From Balanoglossus misakiensis (Eukaryota; Animalia; Hemichordata), in the NCBI GenBank assembly GCA_040954595.2, contig CM082592.2, forward strand, positions 1,798,001-1,862,000: DNA of 64,000 nt. Reading direction: 5' to 3'. Below are positions 10,897-61,167 of this stretch, piece after piece (the first letter of the stretch is position 1; each line of letters opens with the position of its first letter). The translations under genes and the position numbers were made by a program. The notes beneath the pieces are model-generated. The model searched no databases. It was not told the DNA's origin and saw nothing but the letters and a program-made list of their open reading frames with translations.

Positions 10897-13245
10897 ATTC
10901 AGACATGTCAAAGTGATGACCAACTCAGAGCTGCTTTGGAGAAGATTGGAGAGAGTAATGTTGCCAGTATAACAGGATTCACTGACCCAATATCGTCGAT
11001 CAGCATGTTCGATAAGGATGCTTTGCTACAGAACTTCAATGCACATCACTGCGTGTACAAGGCTGTTGCAGAAATCAAACAGTTTATTGATGGGATGAAT
11101 GAACCTTTGAAACTGGGAAAACTAATCCTGAGAGAACCAGGTAAAAATTTTGAAACTATACCCACAAATTTTCAGTATTGTAGTCTTATGATTTTATAAT
11201 GAGTAGCTCCACCGTCAGCAGCGCCAAACTTGTCAGATAGGCTGGTTGTTCCACCGTCGTTTGTCTGTCATCTGTCAACAATTGGCTTTTGTGCAACTAC
11301 TGGTCTGAACGTTTATAGTATTATTATGCAATTCACCCGGGGTGATCGCAGTTGGATTTGTTCAAATTATAGGGCAATTTGCATAATTGTATTTTTGGGG
11401 CAATTTCCTCAGTTTTTGGTCAAAAATCATTTTCTTTGAAATTTGGCAAACAGGTTCCACTCCTATAGATGATTTTAGTAAGTCATGATGAAATTGTGCT
11501 GATATATGCAACACTATTTTTCGGCAATTTTCACCACATTTGGTAAATAAAACTTCAAAAATCTTCATTTTAGATATCTGATATGCAGGATTCTAAAAAT
11601 TGTGTATATTAGTATTTTTGCAATCCCTCCACAATCCCCACCTACCCACCATTTTTCTGCTTTCCCACTCGTTTCAGGTTTGTTGCCCCCAACAAAAACC
11701 CAGTTTCTACTTTGTGGATCAAGTTATGTTTGGCTCTGTGGCCTGACTGGTAGGCTTTAACCTGCCCATCTTAATAGTTAGATACATGTAGCTACGTTGT
11801 GTTTGCAGCAAAATAATATATATAATTGCTGTTCATTTTTCAGGTTCAATGGAACATTTTCTGTGTCATAGTGCCAACCTACAACCATCAACACAATATT
11901 TCAAGCAGCTTGATGTGAACTTCAGTCCTAGAGGATCAAATGACCGAACTCTCGAGGAAAGCACAATTTACTATTGGTACGAGTTTCTAGATGAATGTGA
12001 AAAGGGTGAGTTCAATTTGGAACACAATTCAAATCTGTCATCACAATAAAATATGCTCATGTTACTTTGAAGTACTAATTCATCACTACCTGATCCAAGT
12101 ATTCAATCAGATGTATAAAATACAAAAATGTACGTCTACTTCAATCCTGAATGGTGATGACACGTGGAGGATGCATTCTCCATGGTATGCTTGAATTTTC
12201 AGAGCCCTCTGAAACATTCAACATATATTATTACCTATGATGTCACATTATCTTGCAGAGGAGGTGTTTTTTGTCATATGTAATAGTTTTCTGTCAATCT
12301 TCAATAGGGTACAAAGTATAATCCAGCTGTTTATGAGGTATCACATGTACCAGTCAACCAAACAACCATTAAAGCCTTGTGAGCTGCAACTCAATAAGGG
12401 AATTTGTCTTTTTAAGTAGAACATACCTTGGATTCTAAAGTAAGACTAATAGAGACAATTATAATATACCTCATGCTAATACTGTGCCGTGATTCGCCAG
12501 AATCCGTCACGTGATAGGAAAATAGAATCGACTATGAACCGCTAGGGAAATAGCAGAAAAAATATAAACCGGTCACGTGACTAACGTGGTCACGTCAATC
12601 AGCATCGCGTCGTCTGACACAATGGCCACCGTTGAAGATGTCGTCTGCCAGCCTCAAGAGAAATTTGCAAGGTTTTCCCAGCTGTTAGCATGAGGTTTAT
12701 TATAAAACACCTATAGCCTGGCCTATATTCGGGCCATAGCAGCCGTTTTTACTCCCTCGTGCCTGTGAGTTACCAGAATCATATGCTATTTCCCGAGGCC
12801 TGTGGCCTCGGGAAATAGCATATTATTCTGGTAACTCACAGCCCCTCGGGTGTAATAAACGGCCGCTATGGCCCTCATGGCCAGGCAATAAGTGTTCAAT
12901 ATGACACACACAACTGATGTAATTGTATTTTTAACAAGAATAAAAATGTCTGTACCTTTCACAGGGCATGGGAAATCAAGTATTGCCAATGAGGACAAGA
13001 ATGAATCAACTGAAGTTGTAGTTTCACTTGGTGATTTGTTGTCATTCTTCACTGACACAGATTCACTTCCACCTTTAGGTTTAACCCCTAAAGCTTCTGT
13101 GGCCTTATTCTAGCACTGTGCCTAGGCTAGGGCCAACATGTGTGCCAATATCTTGTATCTCCCCAAAAATGCAACTAGTGAAGAGGGTTTTACAGAGAGA
13201 ATCACCTTTGCGCTGACAAATTCGTTGGACTCTGGTAATGTGTAA
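10897..13245 (+). pseudogene. G2E3-like HECT E3 ligase C-terminal exons (~10897-11140, 11844-12005, 12965-13245), degenerate
   Basis: AEIKQFIDGM; VNFSPRGSNDRTLEESTIYYWYEFLDECE; LLSFFTDTDSLPPLG..ANMCANILYLP (catalytic Cys region). AG/GT boundaries. In-frame stops in the last exon. Confidence 0.75.
12461..12902 (+). mobile_element. Non-autonomous IR-IR-hairpin (Crypton-like) element, family 2
   Basis: 19-bp IR ataatatacctcatgctaa (12461-12479) / ttagcatgaggtttattat (12685-12703), then a ~190-nt imperfect palindrome centred on ttcccgaggcc-tgt-ggcctcgggaa. Confidence 0.75.
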
Positions 13246-14276
13246 CAGTAATTGTTAGTGTGATCACTCTACGTATGGTATAATTGGCATAAACAGAAGT
13301 TTCAAAAAAAGCTTTTTCTGAAATTTTCTCCAGTGATGCCTCATGCTAATATCTCAATCCAGCAGGTTATTTGGATTTTTCGATCGAATCATTGTAAGAT
13401 GATAGTTCATGGCTTTCTGATGCATAGAGTTTGAGCCTGAAAACATTGGTGATATTTTCCATTGATCTGTTCTATGCTCAACCAACTTCAGTATCCTCAG
13501 GCCCCATCTTCAGGTTTGCAAATGGAGACCAATTACATCTCATAGTGTAAGTGCCTTCGCTACTGAAAACTAGTCTCGGTTACCCAGAGCCCTCTGCTTC
13601 TTCCGTTGGGAACTCCAGAAAGAGGGTCTGGGGAAACCCAATAGAAAACTCTCCGGGCAAATCCAGCGCTAAATTGTTTACCTGCTTATAATTGAGCACA
13701 TAATTGCTAATAATCAGCACCTATGGATGCGAATATAAAATGTTTAGCAAATAATGATAAAAATAGTCAATAATACTAAATAACAAAAAGCATTAATCGA
13801 ATTATTTTAGTTTTGGCGGGGATCTCACCCCATATATGTAGAGTCAATATCAGATGTTGATATTATTGAGCGATCTGGTCTGCTTGACAAATTAGACAGA
13901 GGGGATCTTGTGCTTGCTGATCGAGGGTTCACTATCTCAAAGAAACACTAGCAGAAAGTGGCGTTGACCTGAATATTCCTCCCTTTTCAAATGGAAGAGA
14001 GAAAATAACACCGAATGAAGAAAAAAAAATTGCAAGAGTGGATATCAATGTTGAAAGGAGTATGAAGAGAGTAAAAAAGTTCAGACTATTCAGAAAGGTG
14101 ATCCCACTATCTTTACATCCAGTGTTCTCGCAAATGGTATTTGTAGCAGGCTCCCAAGTAAACTTTCGAGAACCTTTAGTGAAGTAGGAATTTATGTACT
14201 GTGTCAGATTGGGTGGAGTGTATAATCATTACGGCTTCTCAAGGGCAATTCAATTTATTTTTTGGGGGTATGACCA

Positions 14277-15375
14277 TTGGGTATTGTTCAAAGGTCATTA
14301 ATTTCCATTGGCGTGCAAAATTTAGATCTTGCGACAGATGTATACATGGCTACAGTTGCTGGAGCTCCATGTGGGGAAAGTAGCATAAAGCTTCACAGAG
14401 GGTGCAAAGATAACCATCTGCAACAGCGCAGACAAGCATTAAACACAGGCCTCCATGGGAAGAAAAAGGAAAAGGCCGCTCTGAGATCAGCAAATTCCCA
14501 GCTTTTTGACTATTTCGTGAAAATTATGAGGATGCACCATCATCACAGCAATCATCAGTCTAGTTTGCCATTGCCTGATAAATGTATCCTTTTCCTCAAG
14601 CCAGGCATGATTCAAGGTTGCCCACATCCTGTGTGCATGGGAGACACAGACCCTGCTTCAAGATGGTTGGATGAATAGCCGGAATTCCCCTACCCATAAA
14701 GGAAGGACCCAGAATGGCCATGAGGAGGGGGGGGGGGGTGGTAGCACATGTTATGCATGTGTTGGTGTTTGTAGCGGATATTACTTGCCACCAGAAAAGT
14801 AATTTGATGTTTGGAAGTCTCAGCGTAATTACATACACGTTTGCCAAACCCCATATGAGGTTATTAGATTATCCTTAGAAACCTCAACAAAAGAAAACAT
14901 TGAATTGATCAGTGATCTGCAGAAGGTGAGACAATTGGCAGAAAAAACACTGTTGTCAGTAAGTGAGGTGATAATGTGGCTGCAACATTTAACAGATATA
15001 CACAATAGAAGAATTAAAGGGGTGAAGAAAGCAGCTGCCACACGAAAAACGAGGAAATATCGTGTATGTGTGGTAGAGCCGATGGTGGAAAACATGGTAC
15101 AGTGTGAAGGTCACTGTACCATGAGTTACCATTATAGTTGTGCTGATTTATCAGATATTCCCAGTGGTACATGGACATATGCGAAATGTGTAGCCAACAG
15201 GAATTTGATGAAAGCTCAAGTGGTGATAAAACAATCTGTGTTTGTGGCAAACCAAATTCATTTGAAAGGATGATTGGTTGTGATTGCCCAGTTTGTTGGT
15301 ATCATTTTTCTTGTGCCACCATAACTGTGCCTCCCAGAGGAAAGTTGTATTGTCAAAATTTTAATAAGAAACCTG
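14277..15375 (+). pseudogene. Frameshifted TE-associated ORF with two C-terminal PHD fingers
   Basis: MVQCEGHCTMSYHYSC..W and ICVCGKP..MIGCDCPVCWYHFSC..PRGKLYC (PHD C4HC3-like). Upstream Cys-rich and basic segments are in shifting frames. Confidence 0.65.
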
Positions 15376-15556
15376 GAAAAATCGCGTCAAGGACATGGTG
15401 GTCCCATTTAGGGATTACACAAGAAAAAAGTCTACATCAGAGTTATATATACAGACAGACGCACACACACACATAGAGAGATTGTCAGGCAAACACTGAC
15501 TGAACCATAAGCTGCCAGTGGCATGTGCACTGTAAGTACACCAAATAGAACATCTG

Positions 15557-16014
15557 GGCTGCGTTTGGGTGCACCGTTCTTGCGATTGGAATCACGCCCT
15601 CATCGTTACAATACGATACATGTTCTCGTTACGGTCGCCCATACGAAAGCAACTTTGTTCTCCAATATGACGAAGGTGTACCACATTCATTTTCCCTAAA
15701 TACAACTTACAAGAAAACAAGTGAAGCCACAGAAATAAGAAACAACTGGAATATCATGAAAGTGTGTTGACTTTACTCACCACTTTGAATTTTATCAGCA
15801 TTCCGCCGACCAGTGCGTATTGTATACGTTTTATCATTGTAAACAACGTCCATATTGGAACTTTCCGTGTTTGCCGCCATCTTGTTCTCGTCTGCTCCCA
15901 GGTTTTTGCAGGAGTACGTTCTCGACTCGAGAACAGCCCTCGGCAATTTTCCGAATCTTAATCGAAGTCATTCGGGTCGTTCTCGAGTCAAGAACAGCGC
16001 ACCCAAACGCACCC
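15557..16014. mobile_element. PIF/Harbinger-type MITE
   Basis: TIR ggctgcgtttgggtgcaccgttctt / aagaacagcgcacccaaacgcaccc with 3-bp TSD CTG. An empty site is visible in the paralogous repeat at ~28,350. Confidence 0.85.
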
Positions 16015-39110: not shown

Positions 39111-39425
39111 TATTCACAGATACTTTTAAGCGTAATTCTGATATAATTGATAGGTTTAGGGTCCGGGTATATTTTACAACCGATAACTAAAGCAAAAGGA
39201 CTAATTCCTATATTCTGAATCAAGTGAATGCAATGTAGACGGCGAAAGGACGTGACAAGACTCGAATCTGAATCAGAATATAAGTTTAGTGTTGGAAGTG
39301 AATCGTGAATCCAAGTTCACCGCTGAATCTTGGGCCGTGGAACGTGAAACGTGAATCTTGAAACTTGAAACGTGAATCTTGAATAGGCTAACCGGCCTGA
39401 GCGCGTCTGACGTCATTTGATATCG

Positions 39426-41603: not shown

Positions 41604-44600
41604 AATAATTACTGCTTGTAACCAATCCGTGGTACATTTCGGCCAACCAATAAACCGATTTGCAACTTCAAAAAAGGAAATAGAAAAAATGCTAAATGTC
41701 AATTCTTCATCTTGATTATTAAATTTTAGGCCTATTTTCTAACTACATATTCTTCGTCTGAGATTGACAAATGGGAAATTGGTATATACTGCTGTGAGGA
41801 TGGCACTTTGCGGCCATTCAAATTTCCCTCCGACGAACGTCATTTCCAACAATGCACTATTTCCGTTTTCCCAATTTTCAATTTACCAAATATCTCTTTA
41901 TCCTAATGAAAGGGGGGGGGGGGCTGAAAATAGGCCTAAAATGTAATAATCAAGATGAAGAAACAATTTGAAAATTGACATTTAGCATTTTTTTCAATTT
42001 CCTTTTTTGAAGTTGCAAATCGGTTTATTGGTTGGCCGAAATGTGCCACGGATTGTAACCCTACCCATTTGCGGAAAGTAATCCCCAAAACAGAATACTT
42101 CGCCTGTCAAAACGCACGAAAGAAATTATTTTACAAAATCACAGAATGGCAATTGCGATTTGAGTGAAATTGCGATTTGAGTTGACTGAAATGTTGTTGA
42201 CTCTCACGAAATGCTGATTTGAGTCGAGTGAAATTTCGATTTGAGTTGAGTGAAATGGCGATTTGAATTTTGGCCCCATTTGAGCGCCATAATTGTACGC
42301 CTATCCCAGTTTTGGCTTATGCAAGCGACGTCCGGTGCTGCACGCATATCATCGTTCGACAACTTAGTTTGACCGGTTATTTAACGATTTGAACACTTGA
42401 CAGACGTAATTTGTATCAAAACCTTACAACTGCCCTGATTAGTTGATAAAAGTTGCGGCTGGCCGGCCGACTTCTTCCTCAAAATAAATATACGTTATGA
42501 ACGAGGATATATGGGCAAAGGTCAGTGTGACGTCATGAGGTTTGATTCTAGAACTCACGCGATGGATTTTGCTTGGTCGATGTACGTACAGCTACAAAAA
42601 TTTCAAAGGTGGGTAATTTTTAACAATATTGTGACCGTGTGTACGAGGTATTAAGAATAGTTGGCAAGTGCCTCTCAGAAAACTGGTCTTTTAAATATTG
42701 TCTTCGCAAAAAAACGACAACATTTATCAACAACATTTACTCCGCACGCGGTTTGACTTTGAAACAGACCCGGGCGGGAGGCGTTCACGATGTTTAATGT
42801 GTGTAATCGCGATCCTGTAATGGTTTTTGACTGTAGAAATATCCACAGACGCCGGCATCAATGTTGCGAAAACAGAGTTATGACTACAGTAAATAATGGA
42901 AATATGTACCTTCGTGCGTTTGAAGACGGAATTAGAAATAATCGGAATAATATTTAATTTCTCATGTGAACTCTTCACCCGGCCGGGGCTGATGCGACTT
43001 TGTAAAAAAAATGTGTTGGTCATTGTTGATTCTGTCATTATTCTAATGTATTTATTTTGAATTAACTTGTGTTCATCCAGGTAATCGTATGGATTTGTAT
43101 GGAATTACTTACACAATAATTCAAGACAGTTATATCCCAGAAGTCGAACCTCCATGTGTGTATTCAGTGAAAGGAACTTACAACATTATGTGATATGATT
43201 TGTGTATGTGCTTGGGATTCAATCATGCTGTGGAGATGGCCTGCAAACTTGGGTTGCATGGCGTTTCAGTGAGTATTATTTATGCTTTATGAAGTTTTGC
43301 CGTATAATTTGTGAGTCATTTCAAGTATTTGATGATCAAATTTTACAGTTACTCTGAGGTAACCATTTAAAACATGAATTCTACCAAATGAATGAATGTG
43401 CTTAGAATTCACAACTGTGAGAGAGTTTGCATAAGAAATTTTTCAGATGCATTTTTCTGATGGCAATGCATTTAACTGTAAACAAATATTGACGTCCATT
43501 CTTAGCGCTATTGTGTCAGTGAAATGGCTTCATCATTATTCCTCCAACCAAAGTTGAAACACAGCTTGAAATTATAAAATGTTGCAAAATTGAGCCAACA
43601 GTTCGGTCAACAATCACGTTCTTACAGCTATTATTAGAACCAGACTGTATGGGGGAACAAGAGACATGGGCCTGATTTGCAAGCCGAGTTGGAAATGATT
43701 TTGCCTGCCCACGGACCTACCAATTTCAGTGAATCTTATTGTATTTAAATATGAATATGGAGAACTATCCTCTGTATTCTGATTGTTAGCCTGCATACAT
43801 CATTAATGTACCTTGAGTGATTCTGGTTTCTTCCGTATCCTGTAAATGAGAATTTAGTCACCAAAACAGGCGCTTCTCGGATTCAGATACCAAAACCCGC
43901 ACTTCTCACAATTCAAAGACCTAATCAACTGGGCAACCAGGTCTGTCAAATTAATCTGATGCCTCTTACCGGCTGAAGGACCACCAGTTGCATTTTCACA
44001 TCGCATATAAACAAAAACCCAATTAAATTATGCAGTATAATTTTATTGACAATTCAAAAGTTTCATGACTGTTAGTGTTAATTACAATACCTAAATTTCC
44101 AAATATGAGAATGCAGTCCTTCAGCTCCAACTATTTCCTTAACTGCACCCTTTACCCACCAGTTACAGTCATCACGGGCCTCAACTTTACCACCTACCGA
44201 AAACTTGTAGTTTGCAATGTCCTGTTGTGTTCGCGAAACTGCCAATAAGATGTTAATTACAATCTTTCCTTCCAAGTCACCTACCCAATTATTTCAAAGG
44301 TGGTTATCAAGATGGCCAGAACAGCCAATTTTAACCAACCAGCTTCAAGAACCTGAGAAAAGGTGCTAAAAGCATGCAATAGATATATTGACGAGATAAA
44401 CATTGGGAACAATAGGATTATTTAAGGGAGGTGTGACTGGTCCAACCTGCTCAGTTTTAGTGTGGGGCACGGCTGGAATGACTGCAAAGACCTAATTGAC
44501 CGGGCAACTGGGTCTGTCGAATTAATCTGATGCCTCTTACTGGTCGAAGGATCACCAGTTGCATTTTCACATTGCATATAAATAGAAACCCAATTAAATT

Positions 44601-47600
44601 ATGCTGTATGATTTTATTGACAATTCTAAAGTTTCATGACTGTTAGTGTTAATTACAATACCTAAATTTCCAAATATAAGAATGCTGTCAGTTTTCATGT
44701 GATTGATATTAATTTTACATTTTCAAAATTTGCTTCTCTGAATGATTATCATCAAACTCCTGTTATATCAAATGTCTTGATACAACATTTGATTGCCCCA
44801 TTTTTTGCTCATGCTTTCTAACCAGTCAGTTGCTTCTGTTTGGATGGATGGTTTGATGTCCGTCCACATCAAAAACTTGAAAACCACTTCGCGTATCCAG
44901 GCCTCGAGCTTAAAGGCACGTAAGCTGCAACTGGATAAAAAATTAAAGTTTTAAATAATCTCATATATGCTTTTAATTATGTCTATTAAATGATATTTCA
45001 TGATAATATATCAATTTTTGAAGCTCAACTCTTTTTTATGACAAAATGGCCAAAAATTAAAGAAAAACGAAAATTCCTGCAATTTTAAAAAAAGTGCAAT
45101 ATTGCAATGAAAAATGAAAATCTGATGTCTCAGTGGTGTACATTTACTTCCATGAGCTCAAGTGGATGAGATCATGTTTTGTTTATGAAGTTACACAACC
45201 GGAAATGCAACATTTTCATTGTTTCTTGCATTTTCCCACGGTGGCGGCCATAATCGCTTGCGGCAAAGCTTTATTATTTATCTGGTTAAAACTTGCATAT
45301 GCACTCATATTTAGGGTTTATAATGCTCGTGTATAGTTCACTGCCTTCATCTGTATGGACTAATGGTAGTGCAATTTGAAACAAAAATTATGAAAATTAT
45401 CCCAAAAGTTACAGCTTACGTGCCTTTAAAGGTATACGGTCACCTATGGAAATTTAGCTACAGTTACCATTTGTAAACTTGAGATCTAGCCAATCGCTGA
45501 TTTTCACTGGATGGCACACGCGAAAAAAAGAGCGCCATCATATGTTCTTTGGAACGCTCAAATACGCCATTTCAGCCAAATATGGGCGTATGTAAATGGG
45601 AGGTGACTGTATACCTTTAATGCCGGCCCACCGGTTCTATGAGCGATGTTTGCAATGGCTTGTTTGTGCCCCTCAGATAACGCATGGCTCGATAAAACTC
45701 CTTTTCATGTTGGTACACCAAGTTACGAAAGGACCTGCTGCATATTTTGTGTACTTATCAAGAATTCCAGACTGTCGCTTGTTAACAACCAGCGGACGTA
45801 CACACTACACACTGCAAGACTGGCAGAACATTTTGGAGATGTGTTCATCACGCTTACCGGGATCGTGTATTAGCCATGGAAAATCTTTTTCCCAAGCCTC
45901 TTGAAACTTCCTTTCCCATTTCTGTGCATCGAAGACTTTGTTTGCAGCACAGCGATCTTCTGTTGATCGCTTCTTTTTCGCTGCTGGTGCCTCAATATTT
46001 AAATATATGTACATGTTTGACTCACGCATAAAGCCCATCAAAACAAGGAATCCATTTTGAATAAACGAGATCTCGAATCTACCACCAATGCATAACATAT
46101 GGGGATGTAGACTAGCGCCACCACTCTCGCAAGTCGCCAGAGATGCTTAGCTTTAATGGCTTTCGCCAAGTTGATTTTGCTGATCGATCTGTTCAGTTTT
46201 CATTTTATCTAAATTTTGGGCTTTGATTATTTGAGAATTTAGCAGTATAGGGTCAGAAACTTAAAAATTGCCACCCCCCCTCTCTATTAACAGCAGGACA
46301 TTGGGTCTGCTTCTTTATCAAATTAAGTGGGAAAGGAAAGACAATGACACTGTCAGGAGTCTACTACCTCCATGATGAACCAGAGAGCAATGACTATTTT
46401 AATTTATTTCAAATACTATGTTTACAACTGCTGTGCTCCCATTAACTGGGGAAAGTATATGATTGAACTGTCTGTTTGAATAATTCATGTATTTCGCTAT
46501 GTGACCCGGATTTTGTGATTTTCTGATAGATTGATACAAAGACAGTTCTTTGCTTACTGATAATTTATTGAAAGTGCTGCTCTTCCAATGACTGTCCAGT
46601 ACGTATTTGCATAATGTGAACCTTGACCAGGTGTACAGGGCCCTCATGAAGCAAAGAGATACAACCCTTCTCTTTGCTAAACTTGGCTGCTATGAGTAGG
46701 TTTGTAACTTTTTGTTAAAAGTGTTCAATCGTTGACATCCACTTCTATTATTGAGATGAAATGATGTATTAGTGTCTCAAGAACAGTCAACTGTAATAAT
46801 TTGGAAGAATGTTTCATGTTTTTGTGAGTTTTTCAAGCTTTTATTCAGAGTTGATGAAAGTACAAATACAATGAACAGTTGCATGTGTTACAGTGTACTG
46901 CCATGGTCAAACAATACTTGGACATTCAGTTATTGTTATCGCCTGTTGGAAATATGTGGATATTGGACTCCAACAGTATTTCATGTGCTGTAGTATTTTC
47001 TGCTATGTATGCTTTGTACATATTTTTTGGTTTTGTGAATTAGTATTTTAATGCTCATTTCTCCCTTTGCTAACTTGGCACCTACAATACTATAGTCAGT
47101 ACATAACAGGATATACTTCAAAAGGGAAAACTTTTCATCAAAACATTTCAGCTGATCCTGAATGCTGATATTTGTTTTAAAAATGAATTTATCTCATAAC
47201 TTCTACTGGTGCACCATTTTTTTTCTTTTAAAATGCATCTCTCATACATTGCACTGGTGTGATTTGATATAAATACACAATGAATTCCATCACCATTTAA
47301 TATAGCAGTATAACACAGGATACTAAATCTGAGATGTTTTAGGATGTTTTGAACTAATCAGTAACCATTTTCTAAAACTTATAGATCTGAAACTGAAATT
47401 CTGAATTTGGTCAGCCCTGGGAAATATATTGTGTGAGGCCATTTTTAATTCCAAAAATTAAAACGGTTTAATATTAGAGCCCTTGGTAGAAGGTTACATA
47501 GTACCACACATGTAAATGACGTTCTGCACTGAAAAAAAAGTGAACTTGGCATGGGTAGGTAAAAAAAATGGGCAAAAAAAAGTTTGAGGCCTAGTATCAC

Positions 47601-50600
47601 CTGAATATTTGGTGGGTAGGTGCAGGCCGGTCTGTATACGGTTCAAATGAAGTTACCTGGTAAAATGTTAAATTGATCAAAATTCAGAAACTCAACAACT
47701 GGTCAGATTACTTTAAACATTTGTATGCATGTAGCTTATGTCATGCCCGATATACTTTGAGCTAATATCGTGAATTGTGGCAACTTTTCATTTGGGGGCA
47801 ATTTTTGCCATTTTATGGGATCGGTTGCGTCTGTATGTATGGGTGGATGGATGTATGTCTGTATGTCCGTCCACATCAAAAACTTGAAAACCGCTGCGTG
47901 TATCACATTGATATTTGATGTGCAGATGCAGGCTGGGCTGTAGATGGGAGTTTGATCAAATCAAGTTGTCATTGCCGAAAATATGCTAATTAGCTGGAAA
48001 CATGAATTGGTCAAAACTCAGTAACTAAAGAACTACTGGTCAGATTGCTTTGCAAAGTGGTGTGTATTTACTTGATTGAGTTGTTTTAATTAGGCAGGAA
48101 GCCCCCTCAGTGTGATTTATGTATACACAGCAAATTCCTGAATGATTACAAAACTGGGTAAGTTTATAAAGAGGCCAGCTGTTCTATTTAGTGTATGTAT
48201 GTAGTACATATGCCATTGGCAGCTCTTTGGTCAGTCAGTGCTTGCCCATTGATCTCTCGTTATATGTGTGTGTGTGTGTGTCTGTCTGTCTGTATTTGGC
48301 CATGTACTCCGGTGTAGACTTTTTCTTGTGTAATACCTCAATGGGACCACTGTGTCCTTGACACGATTTTTGGCCAAAAATCATTTTCTCTGAGACTCCT
48401 TGCTAGATTGCTTTTAAAGTTTGGTATTCTTGTTCCAAGTGGTAAAGTGGTAACCCTCGTAATGTTGCATCATTTTGGTGAAATTTGTACATTTGTGGTC
48501 TTGAGGCAATTTTTGGAATTTATATTCTGTGAAACCTCTTGTCAGATTGCTTCCAACTTTGGTTGGCATGTTCCTGGTGGTGATTGAAGTAAGATATTGT
48601 ACAATTTGTTGATATTGAATTTTTGTGGTTTGAGGCAGTTTTTGTCATTGTTGAACACATATTATTTTTGCTGAAAATACTTGTCAGATTCCTTTGAAAT
48701 TTTATTACAGTAGGTCATATCTGCTTGCCAATGTCAGTTGTGATTTTTTTTTCGTGTACACAACTAATTTTGTGTAATCCCCAGATGGGTCCACAGTGTG
48801 TTATAACCTGACCAATATTTACTGGTAAATCCTGTATGTTCTACTTCTGGCAACTTTGAAATATGTTGATGTTTGGGTTAAATGGGATTCTTCACAAACA
48901 TACAATACAGAGTGTGTGGTACAGTCCATGGTCACATTCAGAACTACCTAGTCTATATCTGTATGATTTGCTTCCAAAACTAACACCTAGAGTCATGCAT
49001 ACCATTGGCCAAATAAACTGGAACCCCTAGCTGGGAATAGTGATGTAAGTAGTGTCCCTTTGAAGTCAATCGCATAAACTGAACAGTGTTGATTAAAGTG
49101 TAAGATAAAAAAAATAGATTATAGTGAAGGCAAGGCTTATATCATTGAAAATGCTACAAGCCTTAAGGTGGCATTGCATGAAACCGTCGAGACTTTTTCA
49201 GAGGCCTATTTCTCATCAAAGACAACGTTAAAACCCCCATAAACCATATATATTCTGGAAGCCGAGTTTTTGAACTTTTGTTTGCATTGCAAATATTATT
49301 GATCCCTGGAAATGGTGGCGATTTTGGGTTAAAAAAACCCATTTTTTGATATTATGTCATAAAATTTAAAATAGGTAAAAAAGTTGACCATGCATCATGC
49401 ATCTTTATATGTCATTCGAAACTTGAGTACACGTGCAAAACAACGGTAATTTTGTTTTGCGTTATCTGCTTCCATTGAGGAGTAACAGCGTTTGAAAGTT
49501 AGATTTTTAGTAAAATTTGATCAAATTCACGGTGAGTTGTATTGAATCAGAGTTTATTCCCGCCAGAGACAATTTATCGACTAACAAAAATACCGTTTTG
49601 TTGGCTGGGTCATACACAATCCCCAGTTAAAATTTGAGCAAATTCGGCCAAGGCAGAGCGAAGCTATTTTCGTCTGAAGTTGTCAAGAACAGCGAAAATG
49701 CAAACTGAGAAAAACGGCCATTTGCATTGTTGACACCTATTTGTTAAGCTGTGAACTCATTCAGAAAAGTGCTATTTTGGGGTGATTATGCACCATTTCC
49801 GCCAAGACGTATTAGTCAGGATGTGGGTCAGTATTAGGCATACCGATTTATGTAAAAAAGTAAAATTTGGCAAAAATCACAACTATTCATGCAATGCCAC
49901 CTTAATTACACATATGTATATATCCTTTGTGTAATCCATACCGTACCATAGACTTGCATAGTACTTTGATGGTGAATCACAAATGGCCACTTTCATTACA
50001 CTACCTCAATCAGTCAATTAGCTGTAATAAGACAAACATTCCCAGTGTAATTTACATCACTGTTGTTATTAGTATCTATCGCCAATCAGTATCAATTATG
50101 CCTTTATGTTATTTTAAGTCAATTGTCAAGGTTCATGTACATATCTTACAACTTAACTATCTTGTCAAAAACTTCCGCATGTATATGTACAATGTACCTA
50201 ATTCTAGGCTCACCAGTAGGGTTAGAGATAAAGTGTTTTATATTAACATGCATTAATATGAAACTAGAATTTGATGGTTAATTTAGGACTCCCTTGATCT
50301 ATGGTGACCTCATAAATATGTGCATATCTAATTCTAGGCTATCCATTGGAGGTAGAAACCTGGACATGGCAAACTTTGGGGTCAAAATCTTTTGACAAAC
50401 TCCTGGGTAATCTTGGGTAAACTTTGCCCTACATTCCTATATTTTGGGATCCGGAGCAGATACATCCGTGACACTTGGACTGATGGAAATATGTAATGGA
50501 CTATTATGTCTTACTTCATTAATTTTGTGCACTCATGCCAGGCTAACCAAAATGGCTGAAAGTCTGGCTTTTGTTTGACATAATGAATTTGAGATCAGCA

Positions 50601-53600
50601 TTTTCCTACAGCAGCCATGCTTCACTTAGAAAAGAATGGAAAATATAAAGGCTTAAATGGTAGGCTGAACTTTTTACTTCCCTTCCCTGAGACTGTGTGC
50701 CAATGACGGGATAGCCTACTCAGCGTTGGGTAGATCCTAAGAAGGCCTCAGCCAGGTTTCAAATAAAAAGAAAGCGGAAATAGCTTGAATGGTGGGTTAC
50801 ATCGTTAACTTCCCTGCAGAGCTGATTTCTCAGACTGTGAGCCAATGACGGGTAAAGCCTCTAGGTAGGGGCCACCTAAGACAGGCCAGTCATGCTTTAA
50901 TTACAAAGAAGGGCAAGTTCAGTCTTACCACAACTTTGTCTGCTGTATATGCTTCATAAAGAATGCATAGTATTTTGAGAACACATTGTGTGACCATGTA
51001 AAAAGTACTGGCAAACATAGCCATAGTGGTATGAAAAAACATCTAATGTGGCTTAATAAAAGACATATAAAACACAGCAAAAGCACTGTGACTAAAAGAG
51101 ACATAATACTCCATTACATAGTTGCATCACTCCAAATGTCAAGGATGTATCAGCTTTGGATGCCAAGATATAGGAATGTATGTCAAAGTTTACCCAGATC
51201 ACCCAAAATTTTGTCATCAAATTTGGACCCCAAAATTGTCCCCGTTTAGGGATCTACCTCAACTGGATAGCTTAGAATTATATATGCACATATTTAATGA
51301 TGTTACCATAGATCAAGGCAGTCCTAAATTAACCATCAAATTCTAGTTTCATGTTAATTCATGTTAATATGAAACACTGTATCTCTAACCCTTCTGGTAA
51401 GCCATTCGGTGTTTCATACTACCCAATATGGGAGTGTAGGTAAAAAGTCACCGCAAAGTCATTTGTAATTTTGCTTACAGAAATCTGGTCCCTGACATTT
51501 GGTAAAGGGGTCGAGAATTGTTGTCCCAGAGTAGAACATATTCTTGAAAAAAAGTTTGAGGGGAAGAAGGAAGTGTTTCATTTTAAACTTAAGTGCTTCA
51601 AATAGTAGAGAGGTTCTCATGTTATTTCAATAAAACCTTAATGTCATCATTATATCTTTAGACTCAAACTCAAAGTTGCCAATCTTTCATTATTTTCATG
51701 ATTTAACTTTCGATCTTAGATTGCTCAATCTAAATAAGCTTAACTGATAGATATACATGAACATGTTATGGACAAATGAATGTGGCTGTATGTTGCAATA
51801 TAAAGAAGTTAGATATTAAACGAGTTCCTCGCTGTTTTAATCAACCCCCATATGAAGGGTATACAACTATTGTGGTATGCATCGGCAAGAGATGACAAAG
51901 CCATGCATATACAAGCAATATGGCTCAGTGGGAATTTTTTTACCAAGAAAAAAAGACTTCTAAAATTTGGCATCTTGTGAGCCTGTAGTTGTAAAATCTT
52001 TAAAAAGTGTTTTACTCTTTGGGTCCCATTTCGTATACCATTGGGACCCATGTGAAATTGTTCAAAACTCAGAAACATAAGAAGGTGCTGGTCAGATTGC
52101 TTTAGAAATTGGTGTGTACATTGTATTTTATTGAGACCTTATACAGATTATTTTCATTTTTTGAAGTATATTTTTGGAGCGATTTTTGCCTTTTTGGCCA
52201 AATACTCGGAAACCTTTACCCGTATTTTTTTTTTAATTTGGTTTCCAGGTTCCTAGGTGTGTTTTCAAGAATATTTAGAAAACCCTTTGATGGAAGTGTC
52301 GATATTCTTTTTTGTTGGCAAATTTTGCCATTTTTCTGTGATTGCTTTTCAACTTTGTTTGCAGTTTCAAGGGGAATTCTTACTGTGATATATATGAAAA
52401 GTCTGCTGAAAATATTGTATTTTTGGGGCACGTTTTCGAAATTGAATGTTGATAAAAAAACTAACATTTTATCAGAATGTGCATGACTGATAAATTTAAA
52501 ATTTTAGTTGTAAGTTAATGATATGTTCTTCTTTAAAATTATAATGGAATTAAATCATAGCTCAATTTAGCTATATTATCTTATACCACAAATATGTTAT
52601 TATGGGTTAGGTTAGGTTCTGGGCAGGTACTGAACGCAGTCTTGTGAGCCTCTATATTCAGCTCCACTTCAGTCCATCCTTGGAGTAGTTTTGTCGGATC
52701 TGGTTTGCATGACGTAGGGTTCGGAGTAGTTGTATTTCATGGGCTGTTTTGCCAAAATTTTGTCAAGACGATTCTTGAAAGAGTTCACAGAGTTTGCGGT
52801 GACAACATGGTCTGGTAGATTGTTCCAAATTGCAGCTATCCTATTTGTGAAAAAAAAAAATCTTCTAGTGTTCATTTTGCAGTGTCCTATGTCAACTTTA
52901 AACGGATGACCTCTGGTGTGTTTGTGTGAACTGAGACTGAATAGTCCTTCTCATACACGGCAGTCATATACACCACTCAAGATTTTAAAAGTTTCAATGA
53001 GGTCACCACGTAGTCTTCAATATGTCAGAGATGGCAGATCAAGTAACTTGAGACGTTCTTCATAAGAAAGATTTTTGAGTCCAGGCAGTAGTTTGGTTGC
53101 TCTGCGTGAACGTTCTCAATACAGTCACAAGTCAATGTCCTATGCTTTATGTTACACACAACCGCCATATTCCAGAATAGGGCGAACTAAAGCTATAAAT
53201 AGTAGCTTGAAAATGTCGTTATTGAGATAGTTGAAAGTTCTCCTGATGAGTCCAACAATTTTATTGGCTATGTTCACTTGGGTTTGGATGCGCTTCTCAA
53301 AATTTGACGCCAATGTTTTTTTCATACTTGACAACTTCTAAAGTGGTATTTGTTCCATGTGGACGGCACATAGTGGAAAGGAGTAGTATTTGTTGACTTA
53401 TTTTTGCTGTGAATTGGTAAACTTTGCACTTGTCAGGGTGAAATTTGAGCAGCCAATCGTTGCTCCATTGGGATAGATGATTTAGGTCACTCTGGAGAAA
53501 TAACCCTTACATTGTTCTTTGCAATTAAGTAGGAACCCCCCACTGAAAATTGTATGTACACGTTGACTTCTCTATGTCTGTATACATGTCTATGTGTATG

Positions 53601-56600
53601 TTTTAAAATGTTATGTTCCTGATAGAATTGAAATGATTTTCTCGTAATTCTTCTAAATGGATTATCTCCTATGAGATATGCAGGCTTATTAGGGGCCCTC
53701 AGGCGCTTGGGCCCCTTCTGTTATTGCTGGAGTTTTTCTTCTTTTTCGGCCGTACTTTTCTCTGAAACCGTTGCCTCTGTGCCAATGAAAATTTTAATGT
53801 AAGCCATCATGTGCTAATGTGGCAGCCATGGCCCACTTTCATCATGAATTGAAATTCACACGTGCTTTACCATCCTCACAAACTGTGTTGAACTGGCACA
53901 CTGCAAATTTTGAAAATATGATATTGATCACAATCACACGCACACTGACAGCATGCTTTTTGAAGATACAGGTACTGACATTATCAGTCATAATACTTTT
54001 GAATCCTCAATAAAGAATAGAAGAATTTAACAGGATTTATATTTGAACGCAAAGTATAAAATTCCCTTGTGCCGTAGAAATCTGCATTTTGTGGTCCTTC
54101 TGCTGGTGAGAAGCATCGGATAAATTCAGCATGCTCATCGCCCAGGAAATTTAGGTGTACAGAAAAAAAAAACTAGAACGACAACAGCTATGCATGCAGC
54201 TATGCAGGCTAACAATACAAACACAGAGAACAGTTCTCCATATTCATTTTTAATACGATAAGATTCACTGAAATTGGCGGGTCCGTTGGCAGGCAAAGTC
54301 ACTTCCAACTCGGAATGCAAATCAGGTCCATGTCTCTTGTTCCCTGAGACAGTCTGGTTCTAATAATAGCTGTAAGAACTTGATCGTTGTCCGAACTTTT
54401 GGTTCAATTTTGCAACATTTTATGATTTCAAGCAGTGCATATTTAACTCTGTTTCAACTTTGGTTGGAGGGATAATGATGAAGCCATTTCACTGACAAAA
54501 TAGCGCTATTAATGGACGACAATATTTGTTTACAGTCAAATTAATTATTGTTCATGTTTATCTCGGATAAAAAATAGTCCATAGCAGGTAAAAAAGTTAG
54601 AAAAAAATACTACAAGTTAAAATATTCTTTGACATCAAACGTTCTATAATAAAATATTTGAAAAAAATAGACTTGGACAGTACAGAAGACACGATCAAAG
54701 TACTAGAAAGTTGAAACTTGCTTATTAAACTATATGACTTTTTCCTAAGTATCTCATCAAAAGTTAAAACATGTAGATTATCAAGCAATAAAGTATTACT
54801 TTGAACATGACTATATTTGAAACCTGTTAATTTACGAAATATCGGAGAATTTGCTAGCGGTATAAAACATTTTCATAGAAAAATTACACCACAAATAAGA
54901 ACTGAACAGAATATTACAAAAAAAACAGAAAATAAATGACACTTGGCGATAAAGATGCAAATTTAAAATCCCGAATGACAGCGTTAATATCTTTAAGGCT
55001 ACAAGATATTAAAGATATTAAAATGACCAAGATATTTGTGAACATTAACATAACTTAGTAGTCTACCATTTCAATAAATTGGAACTATTTTAAGTTACCC
55101 AACACCAGGTTGAATTAGCATAAACACTGTCTTTTTTTCTTATTGAAAAACCACAGCAATTAACTAACACTTGGTGACAATAGCCTCCAGTGAAGAAAAT
55201 AACTGTATCGTCAGCGTAAATGAATTGGTTCACCTTGTAATCGCCATGAAGTCATCCGAACAGAAGGTTTGACAAATTCCTACTGAGATCATCTAAGTAC
55301 ACTTTGAAAGAAATCGTAGATGAAATTCCGTCCTGTTTAAACATCTTTTTTGGACTGGAATGGTGCAGTATAGAGCCGTTCCATTTAACAACAAAATCTT
55401 GAAATGTATACAAATATAACAAAATTGTATTAAGTAAGGCTTAACCCCACTTGTCATCAATTTCTGAAAAAGAACATAGTGATGAACATAGTCGAACACT
55501 TTTGAGGTGTTCATTAAAGTAACAAAAACATGCATGTTATGATGTTTATAATAAGTCAGAATTTTCTTCAATACAAAAAAATGGCCATATCAGTGCCATG
55601 TTCTGGTTAAAAATGATATGGCCATTTTTTTGTATTGAAGAAAATTCTGATTCGTAGAAGAGAGACAATCCATTAAGTTTAGAAGCCGTTGTTGCAAATG
55701 CATTGCCATCAGAAAAATACACTTTTTTGTATAACTGCAAGATCTGTCACAGCTGTGAAATTCTAAGGAAATTCATTCTGACATTCATTGTGTAAAATGT
55801 GTGTTTTATGGATTCTTAACCAAACTTAGTCATGAACCTAAATGGTTACCTCAGCAAAACTAAGGCAAGCCAAGTGTTGCAAAATTCAATAAAACATTTT
55901 TGTGTTCATGAAAAACATTTTTGTGTTCATGAAATCTATGTTTGAGTTCATAAAAATCATTTTTGTCTCAACAAATACATTTTTGTGTTCATGAAAACCA
56001 TGTTTATGTTGATACACTTTTTCAACACTAGATGGCGCTCTGCAATATTTAAAGCATACTCTTTTTCAACACTAGATGGCGCTCTGCAATATTTAAAGCA
56101 TACACTTTTCGACACTAGATGGCGCTCTGTAATATTTCAAGCAGACGATGCTGAGTGGGATTCGTCTTCGGATTCAGATACAGTTTTATCGTTTGCAAAA
56201 TGTCACACATTTCATTTAGAGGTTGATCAATTGCATTCGTCTTTAATCAGTAAACATTCGTATTTAAGCCAAAACTGAGAGTTGTCCGAAAATGGATGCA
56301 GCATTTGACTTAAAATTCAGGATCGTTTATAGCGGCTAGAGTAAAAATGCTCAGGTATAGAAATTGTTGTCATGGGGAGTTGTTGGGCTACATAAGTGCA
56401 GCAAGGTGGGTTACTGTGCCAAACCACTCTACTTTAAGCCAATTTCCTGGTGCAATTGATATATTATTTATACAAGCCTGTGCTTATTTTGACATCCAAA
56501 AGGGTGGGGGTCATCTTTTTTTCGAAAGGTTTAGGGGGGGTTATATGATTTGCCCCCCCCCCCCCCCAACGCTTTGTTTTTTTGTTTTTTTTTGTCTTTT

Positions 56601-56709
56601 ATTGTAAAAAAAATAAGAAATTTCGTTCCAAAGAGAGAAAAGCAAATAGAAGTATTACAAAAATTTTACAAAAGAAAGTAGATTACAGGCAAGTATAAAT
56701 ATAAATCAG

Positions 56710-59015
56710 TTACATAATATTGTGGACCTTATCAAAAAATTTTAACATGTCATCTCTTTTGTAAATTTCTTTTTCAAAATGATGTCTTAACATAAACTCG
56801 TTCTTAAGAATTATTTCAATGGGTGTCTTTCTCTCTGTGACCCAATATTTGTGTATGCTCCATTTACCAAGAAGAATTAGCAGTTTTACAAAATTGTGGT
56901 ACTTTTTGGGAACGGTGTCAGTTGAAATACATGTGAAAATAATATGGGATACAGTTAAGTGTGTATTACGATTGAGGAGGCTGGTTACAATAAAACCAAT
57001 TTTCCTCCAGCATTTCTCAGCAATTTGACAATACAAATATCTGTGTTCAAGAGAGTCAATTTGATGACAGCTCTTACAATACATAGAATCAACTTTTTTC
57101 CAGAAAAATAAATACTTGTTACAAGGTAGTAGACGATGTAAGAGTTTCCACTGAAATTCTCTCAACTTGGTATCCTTAGTGACGGCATAAATATTTTCCC
57201 AGATTTTGCAGTCACTTATAGTTTCATGTACGTCTATGTTTAGCTTCTGAGACCATTTAACGAGTGGATTTTTGGGGCACGTTGTACATGACTGTACAAG
57301 CGAACAGTAAAATGCCTTACATGTAAGCTTACGAAGTGGTGGATCATAATCATTGACAGGCGAAATTGCATAAAAACATCTGAATTTTCTAGACCAACCA
57401 AACACAGTTTGATGGCCGACACTAGTAAAACTGCGATTTACGCTATACCATGCATTTAAAATGTTTACATAGAACTGTGGTAGAAGACATTTAACGTGAT
57501 CTGGAACCTCACTCCAAATAACATACTGCTTTAATAAGCTGGTGGTATCATCTAGCTGGAAATATGAATGTGGTATTACAGTCCATGTGGCATCTGTACA
57601 GTCAAGCAATCGCTTGACCCACATTGCTTGCAATGCTTGCACCTGACACATCACATTGATATGTTTAACACCACCCTTGTGATGCTCTTTTTCAAGCACC
57701 TTGTTTGACAGAATTCTCTTGCGTTTTACAAAGTTGTCAATCAACTCCTGCACCTTTTTACATATATCATTTGGCATGCCAATTACGGACGACAAATACA
57801 TAATTTTTGACATTGCCAAAGCTTTTGTTACGACAATCCTACCATACATAGTTAATTGCCTACGGCACCAAGAATGTAAACATTTTTCCATCAAAGAAAT
57901 TTTCCCGTCCCAGTTAAGTCTTTTGCACTCAATTTCATTATACCCAAAGTACACACCCAAAGTTTTCACTGGTTGGGTTGTTACACAAATACTGTTTACC
58001 CAACTACCGTCTGGATTCATGCCGCCCAGCAGAAATACCTTGGTTTTCTTATTGTTTAATTTTAGACCACTGCAGCTGTGAAATTTCTCCATTACACTGA
58101 GTACCTTATCAATCGAAGTAGAATCCCTTACAAATATCGTCGTATCGTCCGCTAACAAAGATATTTTGGCTTCAGAAACTCTATCATTATGGTGAGGTAA
58201 CCGAAAACCATGTATAGTGCTATCACATCTGATTTTACAGGCAAGTATCTCTATGACGAGGACAAACAAAAGTGCAGAGAGTGAACAGCCTTGCCGAACA
58301 CCTCTTTGTAATTTGAAATAGCTGGAGCACCAGCCTTTATACAAAATACAACTCTCAACGTCTGTGTAAAAAGTCTTAACCCATTGTCTAAAAGAGTCCC
58401 CAAAGCTCATGTGCTGTAGCACTTCATCTACATACTCCCAATTAACACTATCAAAGGCTTTTTCATAATCGACAAAAATAGCAGCCCCTGGAATGTTATG
58501 CTTCTTAGAATAGTGAAAAATATCGGAAATGAGTCTTACATTTTCCCCAATAAATCGACCCTTGATGTACCCGGTTTGATCTCTGTTGATCAGATCAGGC
58601 AGAACCCCCTTTAACCGGTTGGATAGCGCTTTCGTGGCTATCTTGTAGTCTGTGTTAAGTAGTGAGATGGGACGCCAGTTGTTAAGATCACTTTCAGGAC
58701 CCTTTTTGTGCAAGAGCGTGAGGACACCACGTCTTTGAGACACACACAGGGACCCGCTTCTGTGAGCCTCATTCAGTGAGGCTAAAACAAGACTCTTGAT
58801 GTCTTTCCAAAAATGCTGATAAAATTCTACTGTGAGCCCGTCAGAACCAGGTGATTTGTTTGGGGCCATACTATCTAGGGCTTTCAAACACTCGTTATCT
58901 TGAAGTTCCCCTTCACAAGCTTTCATCTGATCTTCAGATAAGAATGGCACAGGAGTATCCCCTAAGAAATCATGTAAATTGGTCCCTCTCGCCCGCTCCT
59001 TATAAAGATTCTCAT
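56710..59015 (-). CDS. L1/Tx1 ORF2 part 3: reverse transcriptase and zf-RVT
   Basis: KSPGSDG, WRPISLLNTDYKI, DYEKAFDSV, GVRQGCSLS, LADD, CKSC..DSLEHRYLYC. The frame extends upstream of the 746-aa ORF to (Y)ENLYK. Confidence 0.93.
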
Positions 59016-60489
59016 TTAAACCACGATCGTGACGTCACACTATTCAATAGACAAGTCATTCACTGAGAGAACCTCCGTCTCACACAAAACCACAGGTTTA
59101 AAACCAAGTCCCGGGTAGTTCTAGAACTACCTCCGGGGGTTCTAGAACTACCGCAGGACTCAGTCTCACCTGTCGTAACAAAAATACAAATACACAATGC
59201 TTTATTTGCATAATTACATTTACTTCTATACCTGTATTCAAAGTACATTTCATTTGAATAGAGTAATTGTTATGTTAATTGAAAGCGAACTGGATATGCG
59301 ACAGTCTCCGGATCATTTCATTCAATGCTTCACATTCACAGTTTTGTCTACTGACGTACAAAGCTAATGTCTTGGTGGCTCTCGAGAGTCTTCATAACAT
59401 GATAATAAAAGTATAAAATAGACAAAAATCAATTCACCAGAAACAAACTAACGTTGCAATAAATTAACTACAAATTTCTAGAAAATTATACTAAATCACA
59501 TTATCCCCAGATTTGCTTGCATTACTCTAACCAGATGCTTCACTTCGATTTTGCTTCACTACCGACATGTAACAAGGTTGGCTGTTTTAGGCCTAAAACC
59601 CGCGTACCTTGCAAAATTCTGCTTACTTTTTGTTGCTGTTCACCAGACGTGGGTTTGTAATGTCGGACGGATTCACTTCGGTATCAAGTCTTTTCGCAGA
59701 TGAGTTACTCACCAATATCGCTACCATACAGACGTGTTGCCGCTGTGGCTCGCAGAGAGTGGTTCGTTCAAAAGCCAGGGAGGCCAATACACAGACGGGC
59801 AGTAGTACCATGTAGAGCATTGTTACCCGGTTTTTGCTTTACCAACATGTAGCCGCTTGTTTTCGCAGATGATATAGATCGGAACTACATGTATCTTCAG
59901 ATCGATTTCATGGACATTTGAAGGAAAATAAAAAAAAAAACGTGACACTTACATGTAGGCCTTCTGCATTTGGCCTAGAAAATTTTCGCGTAAGCTTACC
60001 ATGTGCACGCAAAACCCCAATAGCTGTAACGCTTCCCATAATACACTACGTAACACACCTGTAAAGTTTAATTTGATGCAAATTAGTGTTTGAAATTAGC
60101 ATATCACTCTGACACGTAAGCATGAACATTTAGAGTAACACCTGTCAAGCGTGGGCGATCTTGTAAGGCCCAGCAGGGCGGTCTAGAACTACCTGCCCAC
60201 GACATGATTCATTTATAGGAAAAGGGGTGGCCAACCAAATTTCACAGTCAGCAATGAAGAATAAGCCTCTTTTGATAAGCTTTTGTTCGTTCATTTTATT
60301 GAATCGTTGAGTAAAACGACGTCTTTGTGGTACACGAAGCTCCAATGGTGACAATGTCTGTGGGGGGTCGTGGTTTAAGTTAGAGAACCACCTCCCCCTC
60401 AGTGGTTCTTGGTTTCCAATCGCCTCGGGCCTGCGGCCCTCGGCAATTCGAAACCAAGAACCACCTCGGGGTCGGTGGTTCTCTATTAC
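59016..60489 (+). mobile_element. Non-autonomous IR-IR-hairpin (Crypton-like) element, family 3 (~1474 bp), in ORF2
   Basis: IR ttaaaccacga (59016-59026) / tcgtggtttaa (60368-60378) and hairpin 60381-60485. Removal restores KQFYENLY with no TSD. Confidence 0.8.
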
Positions 60490-60853
60490 AGAACTGTTTC
60501 TGAGCGTCCAGTATTTTTTCGGTGCCAGAAACACAATGGCCATCATTAATCTGTACACTTTTCATTTCTTTCTTGACAGCATTCGATTTTTCCAAACCTA
60601 AAAAATATTTCGTACTTCGCTCTCCTTTTTCAACCCACAATGCCCTCGACCGAATTTGAGCTCCCTCGGCGCTTAATTTATAAAGGTCTTCCAGGCGATT
60701 TTTGATATTCCCATAAATCTCAATATTTGCATCTGTGGGGTCATCGATCATATTCTGCTCTGCAATGCTTAACTGATTTTTCAATTCTGGCATAATGGTC
60801 TTACTGTCTCTTGTGGCATTTTGTGCGTAACGCATGGTGTACCCTTTGATATT
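60490..60853 (-). CDS. L1/Tx1 ORF2 part 2 (EN-RT linker)
   Basis: NIKGYTMRYA..GAQIRSRALWVEKGERSTKYFLGLEK, a typical Tx1 linker motif. Confidence 0.9.
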
Positions 60854-61167
60854 TAAGCAATAAAACACCCCCAGCCATGGTATACCACGAGATTTTGACC
60901 AGTTCACGACATATACGCACGAGCGATAGCGAGTGCGTATATGGAGTTGAACTGGTCAAAATCGAGTGGTATACCATGGCCGGGGGTGTTTTATTGCTAT
61001 TATATTATGCCAGTATATTGAAACTTTGCATAAAACATTTTAAAAAGGCATTTTCTTTGACTATGATATATGACTGTGGTATATGGCTAATATATCACGG
61101 TCACGTGTCGTGTCTCGACCAATCAAATAGCGTGATTTACACCATCAATATACTGGTATAATATAAT
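60854..61167 (-). mobile_element. Non-autonomous IR-IR-hairpin element (314 bp) related to the autonomous Crypton
   Basis: Same termini as the YR element (taagcaataa... / ...tataatataat); hairpin 60856-60998; 22-bp IR at 60999-61020 / 61146-61167. Removal restores WDLTKKNIKGY. Confidence 0.88.

Follow-up and report, generated by a model that had tools for sequence, protein, structure and literature searches.

A 64,000-nucleotide stretch of the genome of the hemichordate Balanoglossus misakiensis (GenBank assembly GCA_040954595.2, contig CM082592.2, positions 1,798,001 to 1,862,000; hereafter the window) holds four mobile elements that are built alike: an inverted repeat (IR) at one end, a body, a second copy of the IR, and a long hairpin at the other end. 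What moves them, and why do they end in a hairpin? One of the four carries a tyrosine recombinase (YR) gene. We find that this end architecture is real, selected and widespread among DUF3504/CryptonA-type transposons. We favour, at slightly better than even confidence, the reading that the elements are DUF3504/CryptonA-type YR DNA transposons and their derivatives, which the recombinase excises and inserts as a folded single DNA strand.

Four elements with one layout

The window is rich in repeats, with a GC content of 32-45%. The elements are listed below by their position in the window. The GA strand is the strand that has the hairpin at its 5′ end; the opposite, hairpin-3′ strand reads TC/TC at the same internal loops.

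39426-41603, plus strand: autonomous YR element, copy 2 (IR, YR gene, inner IR, hairpin)
39426-39439, plus strand: terminal IR of copy 2, 14 bp
41446-41459, plus strand: inner IR of copy 2, with no gap to the hairpin base; together with that base it forms the internal junction copy
41460-41601, minus strand: hairpin of copy 2, with three GA/GA loops and a GATA apex on the minus strand; the terminal bases 41602-41603 are unpaired
35385-37557, minus strand: autonomous YR element, copy 1, 98.9% identical to copy 2 and in the opposite arm of an inverted duplication; hairpin at 35387-35528
60854-61167, plus strand: 60.8-kb element, 314 nt, non-autonomous, with the ends of the YR element; its exact insertion is seen in contigs; hairpin 60856-60998 (GA strand plus), inner IR 60999-61021, terminal IR 61145-61167
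59016-60489, plus strand: 59-kb element, 1474 nt, non-autonomous, second YR subfamily; terminal IR 59016-59026, inner IR 60368-60378, hairpin 60381-60485 (GA strand minus)
12459-12898, plus strand: 12.5-kb element, about 440 nt, non-autonomous, predicted ends; terminal IR 12459-12479, inner IR 12685-12705, hairpin 12706-12896 (GA strand minus)

In all four, one IR partner stands at the far end and the other beside the hairpin base. This is the common layout described in an initial annotation of the sequence, and the elements lie where it placed them. The IRs measure 14 bp in the YR element, 23 bp with one mismatch in the 60.8-kb element, 11 bp in the 59-kb element and 21 bp with one mismatch in the 12.5-kb element. 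The annotation had counted four families with different ends. The YR and 60.8-kb elements in fact share their termini (the first 10 IR bases are identical, and the hairpins are 79% identical over 138 nt), which reduces the number of end types to three.

The two YR copies have the layout ascribed to them and are not independent of each other. They occupy the two arms of an inverted duplication of about 20 kb (17425-37670 versus 39306-56579, with 97-99% identity falling outward and a 1.6-kb spacer), with an IR end some 120 nt from each inner edge. They differ at 23 positions and, because they lie in the two arms with flanks in common, count as one insertion. The duplication may be a real palindrome or an assembly of two alleles.

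An intact CryptonA-type recombinase

39603-41069, plus strand: YR gene of copy 2, predicted exons 39603-39783 and 39907-41069 with a predicted GT-AG intron, 447 aa

This is the element's single YR gene, and its product has 448 aa in copy 1. Pfam recognizes QRICH1, DUF3504 (E 3.9e-13) and Phage_integrase (E 4.2e-6) and no others, and the protein lacks an extra C-terminal domain. The catalytic set R-K-H-R-H-Y is complete (R137, K170, H256, R259, H281 and Y290 in alignment numbering). Among 41 aligned relatives none departs from the first R, the K or the H; at the second R, 36 have R and five have K, and the last H and the Y are conserved in 40. At E ≤ 1e-10 the protein has 246 relatives; among the matches listed, nearly all carry DUF3504 and/or Phage_integrase. 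The predicted structure (pLDDT 89.7) is closest to Cre by TM-score (0.63) and to the domesticated QRICH1 by E-value. The YR is thus an intact DUF3504/CryptonA-type recombinase with a predicted Cre fold. Scans of open reading frames (ORFs) and Pfam domains found no reverse transcriptase (RT) or gag in the YR element, the only RT in the window being that of a host retroelement described below. The elements likewise yielded no ORFs for DIRS-type gag, RT/RNase H or methyltransferase, and a search of viral contigs returned no relative of either YR subfamily.

Related loci in metagenomes

Relatives of this first YR subfamily were examined in 80 of 398 confirmed metagenome loci, which form 55 clusters at 85% identity. 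Of the 55 clusters, 13 have a long hairpin downstream of the YR, at a distance of 360-1000 nt; this amounts to 13 of the 28 that have at least 800 nt of downstream DNA. Upstream of the YR, where the scanned length was similar (56.5 versus 60.5 kb), three hairpins were found, one of them belonging to a neighbouring element of the same kind. At one locus (L031:1-70) an IR end follows the hairpin arm of a related family at a distance of exactly 2 nt. We considered this as a circle junction and rejected it, since the arm belongs to another family and the contig covers a single side; it looks as if an element had inserted at the junction copy of the related family.

Hairpins with a fixed strand polarity

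A fold scan of the whole 64 kb returned 13 stems of at least 28 pairs, and the five element hairpins are the five longest. The only other near-perfect stem is a palindrome at 55556-55650; it has 37-bp perfect arms, occurs in one arm of the inverted duplication only and has no TC/TC loops.

Arm alignments of the window hairpins place TC opposite TC on the hairpin-3′ strand three times each in the YR, 60.8-kb and 59-kb elements and twice in the 12.5-kb element; GA opposite GA was found there in none. All four elements thus carry the two or three GA/GA loops that had been noted on the strand that begins, at its 5′ end, with the hairpin. Apical loops of that strand also read as noted, GATA (YR), GATA (60.8 kb), GCA (59 kb) and ACA (12.5 kb), each closed by a C-G pair. 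A TC/TC loop is not simple decay, since two transversions from a perfect palindrome would be needed to make one.

The count was extended to 20 hairpins delimited by hand: four from the window, 13 linked to a YR in the metagenome loci and three neighbours, with none from the second-subfamily loci (L081-L086). Duplicate family members, and hairpins that resemble other repeats or lie more than 1400 nt away, were left out (L013/14, L022, L023, L046, L048, L073 and the second hairpins of L019, L052 and L065). On the hairpin-3′ strand there are 37 TC/TC loops versus no GA/GA loop. At least one TC/TC loop occurs in 17 of the 20 hairpins, none is reversed, and 27 of 43 clean 2x2 loops are TC/TC. The initial annotation had named inconsistent polarity in further families as grounds for abandoning its view; beyond these 20 hairpins a single mixed pair of loci (L083/L084) was found. 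A GNA or GNNA apex is present on the GA strand of 14 of the 20, and the arm sequences change while their pairing stays.

Tandem G-A pairs stabilize hairpins. Loops of the d(GNA) type closed by C-G are reported to be extra-stable in DNA (PMC3201870). The computed folding energy is lower for the GA strand in three of the four hairpins, and whole-element folding favours the GA strand for both short elements. Single mismatches (14 versus 10) show no clear wobble bias and therefore give no support for an RNA fold; Rfam has no match within the window.

An internal copy of the joined ends

Read on its other strand, the inner IR with the hairpin base spells the right end and then, with nothing between, the left end. 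It is a reverse-complement copy of the joined ends. In whole-element folds, the IR stem and the hairpin stem stand end to end with no gap. The arrangement was assessed for 17 families (22 rows). In 10 of them the inner IR match stops no more than 2 nt from the hairpin base (top-ranked in nine, second-ranked in the 59-kb element), and six of the 10 are metagenome families outside the elements of the initial annotation, searched over 420-550 nt.

When copies with different flanks are compared, the hairpin end bears two extra bases, AA or TA, that are constant within a family; bases before the IR end vary between copies. The true junction is therefore 2 nt longer than its internal copy, and the lengths of the 59-kb and 60.8-kb elements as defined by reads agree with this 2-nt extension.

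Exact insertion without target site duplication

56710-62049, minus strand: ORF2 of an L1/Tx1-type long interspersed nuclear element (LINE), with endonuclease and RT, cut into three parts by the insertion of the 59-kb and 60.8-kb elements

Empty sites were sought in contigs of one sample (runs X1 and X2; next to none of the element words were found in run X3). Contigs skip exactly 59016-60489, with no ambiguous letter. Others skip 314 bases at 60853-61166 with two ambiguous letters, a range that covers 60854-61167, their short sides being 23-28 letters long. With both inserts removed, the LINE frame runs uninterrupted over 1183 codons. These contigs bear out, for both elements, the claim that no target site duplication (TSD) exists where a junction can be checked, and a 3-bp TSD considered at the 59-kb site is ruled out by its empty-site contig. 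Such empty sites represent either further LINE copies or the second allele. Homology between the joined ends and the target is 0-2 nt, and 4-6 bp direct repeats or a variable coupling sequence are absent, as is a DIRS-type trinucleotide common to ends, junction and target (the two sites checked with reads leave 0 and 2 letters ambiguous).

Among the joints listed, the 60.8-kb family shows two that run head to tail, with 11 and 23 letters between. Its contigs also contain a back-turning joint and deletions internal to the hairpin (window 60890-60945), and the summed contig depth over the element is very high. The LINE itself is truncated by a high-copy element that starts near 62047.

A second recombinase subfamily and an element without a partner

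59597-59845, minus strand: decayed C-terminal YR fragment within the 59-kb element, with the H-x-x-R and catalytic Tyr region and three stops; its coding strand is the GA strand

A profile search matches this fragment at 59770-59603 on the minus strand (independent E-value 2.4e-7). Its best match, P0125, is a DUF3504 protein 73% identical to it and only 25% identical to the intact YR of the window; the remnant therefore represents a second YR subfamily. The best protein matches of both recombinases come from a hemichordate (69% for the intact YR and 73% for the remnant).

Relative to the hairpin, the decayed gene runs in the direction opposite to that of the intact element. A metagenome locus of the second subfamily (L081) repeats this geometry: its hairpin lies upstream of a decayed YR gene with GA/GA on the coding strand, as predicted. 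The coding strand is thus the GA strand in the 59-kb element and L081 and the opposite strand in the intact element. GA polarity follows element geometry and not gene transcription, with the one mixed case L083/L084. Terminal IRs were not found for L081-L083, nor hairpins in L082, L085 and L086. The L081-L086 contigs are filed under titles of bacterial metagenome-assembled genomes, and they carry eukaryote-type DUF3504 elements and microsatellites; they are likely host contamination, and from its richness in repeats the L081 contig appears to be animal DNA.

The 12.5-kb element has the expected layout, and its ends had been placed at 12461-12902. By the junction rule it would instead measure 440 nt, with predicted ends at about 12459-12898. 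Removing 440 nt links the HECT-like frame downstream to a plausible upstream frame, and removing 442 nt does not, in a test weakened by upstream frames without a Pfam match and a downstream HECT match of E 0.02. Its junction has the GTT-then-TTA pattern of the YR-linked families D and F. A profile search found no YR remnant in the body, and blastn of the window elements against the 80 loci gave nothing below E 0.24 and no cognate YR for these ends. The proposed system of autonomous and non-autonomous elements with more than one recombinase-end pair is supported for the 60.8-kb element by its YR ends and for the 59-kb element by its YR remnant; no protein link was found for the 12.5-kb element.

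Proposed mechanism and its alternatives

From what was observed (the layout, exact TSD-free insertion, an intact YR, two YR subfamilies, polarity and the junction copy), we infer the following course. The DNA would pass through a brief single-stranded state, such as might arise at a replication fork. In that state the GA strand would fold first, its hairpin stabilized by tandem G-A pairs and by a C-G-closed GNA or GNNA apex, the other strand being left with TC/TC bubbles. The far-end IR would then pair on the inner IR, so that a single unbroken splint holds both ends next to each other and the host flanks project as flaps. Folded in this way, the element would amount to an uninterrupted duplex, nicked at the point from which the two host flanks depart. 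A single pair of strand exchanges by the YR could now join the ends into a single-stranded circle that carries a bulge of 2 nt, and could seal the donor strand again. This splinted junction would itself serve as a folded recombination site and insert into AT-rich DNA by one strand exchange, completed by replication. That neither a core of 4-8 nt nor a coupling sequence is present would fit a single exchange finished in this way, as for attC sites of integrons (PMC7439510). Short elements would borrow the YR of their own end type. The full version of this scheme is that animal DUF3504 Cryptons are single-strand YR transposons in which G-A hairpins pick the strand, a splint comparable to the DIRS-element internal complementary region (ICR) aligns the ends, and one exchange releases a circle with a 2-nt bulge. 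We hold it tentatively, at somewhat below an even chance. If true, eukaryotes would have a counterpart to the attC recombination of integrons, kept in YR subfamilies that share only 25% identity, and Crypton ends would be linked to the DIRS ICR.

Several observations weigh against movement as a folded single strand. Fifteen of the 28 assessable metagenome clusters have no hairpin, and seven of the 17 families have no abutting IR, although at least four of these have less than 500 nt upstream and the right end of L059 looks truncated. The hairpin families are related, so that loop counts are not independent events. The L083/L084 hairpin (4207-4304) has GA/GA outside and TC/TC inside, resembling a flipped inner segment, and the 60.8-kb hairpin alone shows no advantage of the GA strand (-67.3 versus -67.6). 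Neither a circle nor a single-stranded form was seen: the joints listed from contigs of the one sample include no exact end-to-end junction of the 60.8-kb element. The predicted YR fold is nearer to Cre (TM 0.63) than to the integron integrase 2a3v (TM 0.33). Finally, for one of the cuts a YR monomer would have to sit on host flank that is not conserved.

Some of these points suit a different course for the same elements, in which recombination is double-stranded throughout and passes through a double-stranded circle, the hairpin acting as a cruciform or an array of accessory sites and the junction copy as an extra YR site that aids synapsis. The Cre-like fold shows no sign of integron-type specialization, and the closest PDB sequence matches of the YR include Tn1549 Int. 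That integrase moves double-stranded DNA. A 2-nt stagger at AT-rich sites could also yield the overlap of 0-2 nt, and the published Crypton model assumes a double-stranded circle (PMC13565253). This route leaves unexplained why GA/GA keeps to one fixed strand with apices that are stable in DNA, why arm sequences change freely under kept pairing, and why core homology of 4-8 nt or a coupling sequence is absent; we rate it unlikely, though as a serious contender. Considerably less probable is a hairpin that serves the host polymerase as a replication primer or origin of the rolling-hairpin type, with the YR only resolving or inserting the product. The apparently flipped segment of L083/L084 would suit it, as would the back-turning joints, hairpin-internal deletions and very high summed depth of the 60.8-kb element. 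Hairpin transfer is expected to give both orientations often, yet flips are rare (no reversed loop in 20 hairpins), and back-turning joints can be assembly artefacts of palindromes.

We give very little credence to movement through RNA with a borrowed RT, in which the junction copy would restore the ends as the DIRS ICR does. The topology equals that of the ICR (PMC7192593), but the element has no RT or gag, its gene keeps a predicted intron, the apices are DNA-type GNA loops, polarity ignores gene direction, and Rfam offers no match. Equally improbable is that the 12.5-kb family, or with less likelihood the 59-kb family, owes its movement to a different enzyme, for instance a Helitron/Helentron HUH nuclease, and arrived at the layout by convergence. 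A sub-terminal IR with a hairpin is also a Helentron trait, and the 12.5-kb body has neither a YR remnant nor a sequence match to YR-linked loci. Against this stand the YR remnant of the 59-kb element and the GTT-then-TTA junction that the 12.5-kb element has in common with the YR-linked families. TC...CTRR is the Helitron end motif. The initial annotation had itself raised a Helitron origin as a check; the scanned ORFs contain no Helitron protein, and the element ends show no TC...CTRR on either strand.

Relation to known systems

Kojima and Jurka (2011) found animal Cryptons without terminal repeats and reported non-autonomous derivatives (PMC3212892), and Cryptons are elsewhere described as lacking terminal inverted repeats (TIRs) (PMC13465315). 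Their transposition mechanism is undemonstrated (PMC13565253). The elements of the window resemble CryptonA in having a single DUF3504 YR gene without a C-terminal domain, an animal host, abundant short derivatives and no TSD (PMC3212892, PMC5753468). They differ in their 11-23 bp IRs, a hairpin of 42-90 bp with strand-biased loops, and the internal junction copy (PMC3212892). Since terminal repeats are present, against the 2011 description, we file the elements as a CryptonA-type variant, judged by YR domains, catalytic set and the lack of a TSD at the 59-kb and 60.8-kb sites. The literature searched did not yield a description of this layout for Cryptons; Repbase Reports, Dfam, subscription papers or Additional file 1 of PMC3212892 may hold one. 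Known Crypton entries probably contain the hairpin itself without annotating it. The consensus sequences of Eulor5/6 are hairpin-forming. These repeats are filed as Cryptons by their termini, with hairpins unmentioned in the part of the source consulted (PMC5753468). CryptonF and CryptonS are likewise YR-only DNA transposons, with terminal direct repeats of 4-6 bp and other domain layouts, in contrast to the 0-2 nt target overlap here (PMC3212892).

In DIRS-1, a single-stranded DNA intermediate and a requirement for the ICR have been shown (PMC7192593, PMC3266345). DIRS1-like elements share with those of the window a YR, the absence of a TSD, and an internal sequence near one end that is complementary to both ends side by side. 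Here, however, RT, RNase H and gag are lacking, the long GA/GA hairpin is present and the IRs are much shorter than the inverted terminal repeats of DIRS. The junction copy also falls 2 nt short of the true junction, whereas DIRS ends overlap on a trinucleotide. The integron attC/IntI system offers a tyrosine recombinase, palindromes in which structure counts over sequence, strand asymmetry in unpaired bases, and minimal crossover homology (PMC7439510). Its cassettes are bacterial and carry single extrahelical bases, as against the tandem G-A, Cre-like model and proposed single-strand use here (PMC7439510). IS200/IS605 and Helitrons also lack a TIR-type TSD and have end hairpins that are read strand-specifically, and IS200/IS605 excises as a single strand to a circle (PMC13565253). 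Their HUH nuclease chemistry and short hairpins (PMC13565253) set them apart, no HUH protein being present here.

To this background the window adds an autonomous copy of 2.2 kb that is intact, ends that empty sites fix to the base, the 2-nt rule and a polarity independent of gene direction. The design is conserved and mutable (GA/GA loops, GNA apex, junction copy, 2-nt extension), making the mechanism directly testable, and points to a eukaryotic recombinase that leaves no scar and needs almost no homology. Used as a descriptor, the layout can sort gene-less repeats of invertebrate genomes into classes, and it may explain the ancient Crypton-derived Eulor repeats of vertebrates.

Other features of the window

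In each of the four elements, CCAAT-box, E-box and cAMP response element (CRE)-like motifs lie 15-120 nt inward of the IR end (at 39468, in the 61123 region, at 59030 and at 12508-12581), with similar motifs in several related loci; they are possibly a promoter. A short perfect hairpin with a GGCC-rich base (9868-9903) is possibly a remnant of another element. The window also contains a piggyBac-type transposase fragment (7556-8002), decayed HECT-like sequence (12898-13227), a PHD-finger ORF (14803-15270), and tandem arrays of 146 and 239 bp at 5794-6936 and 62571-63825.

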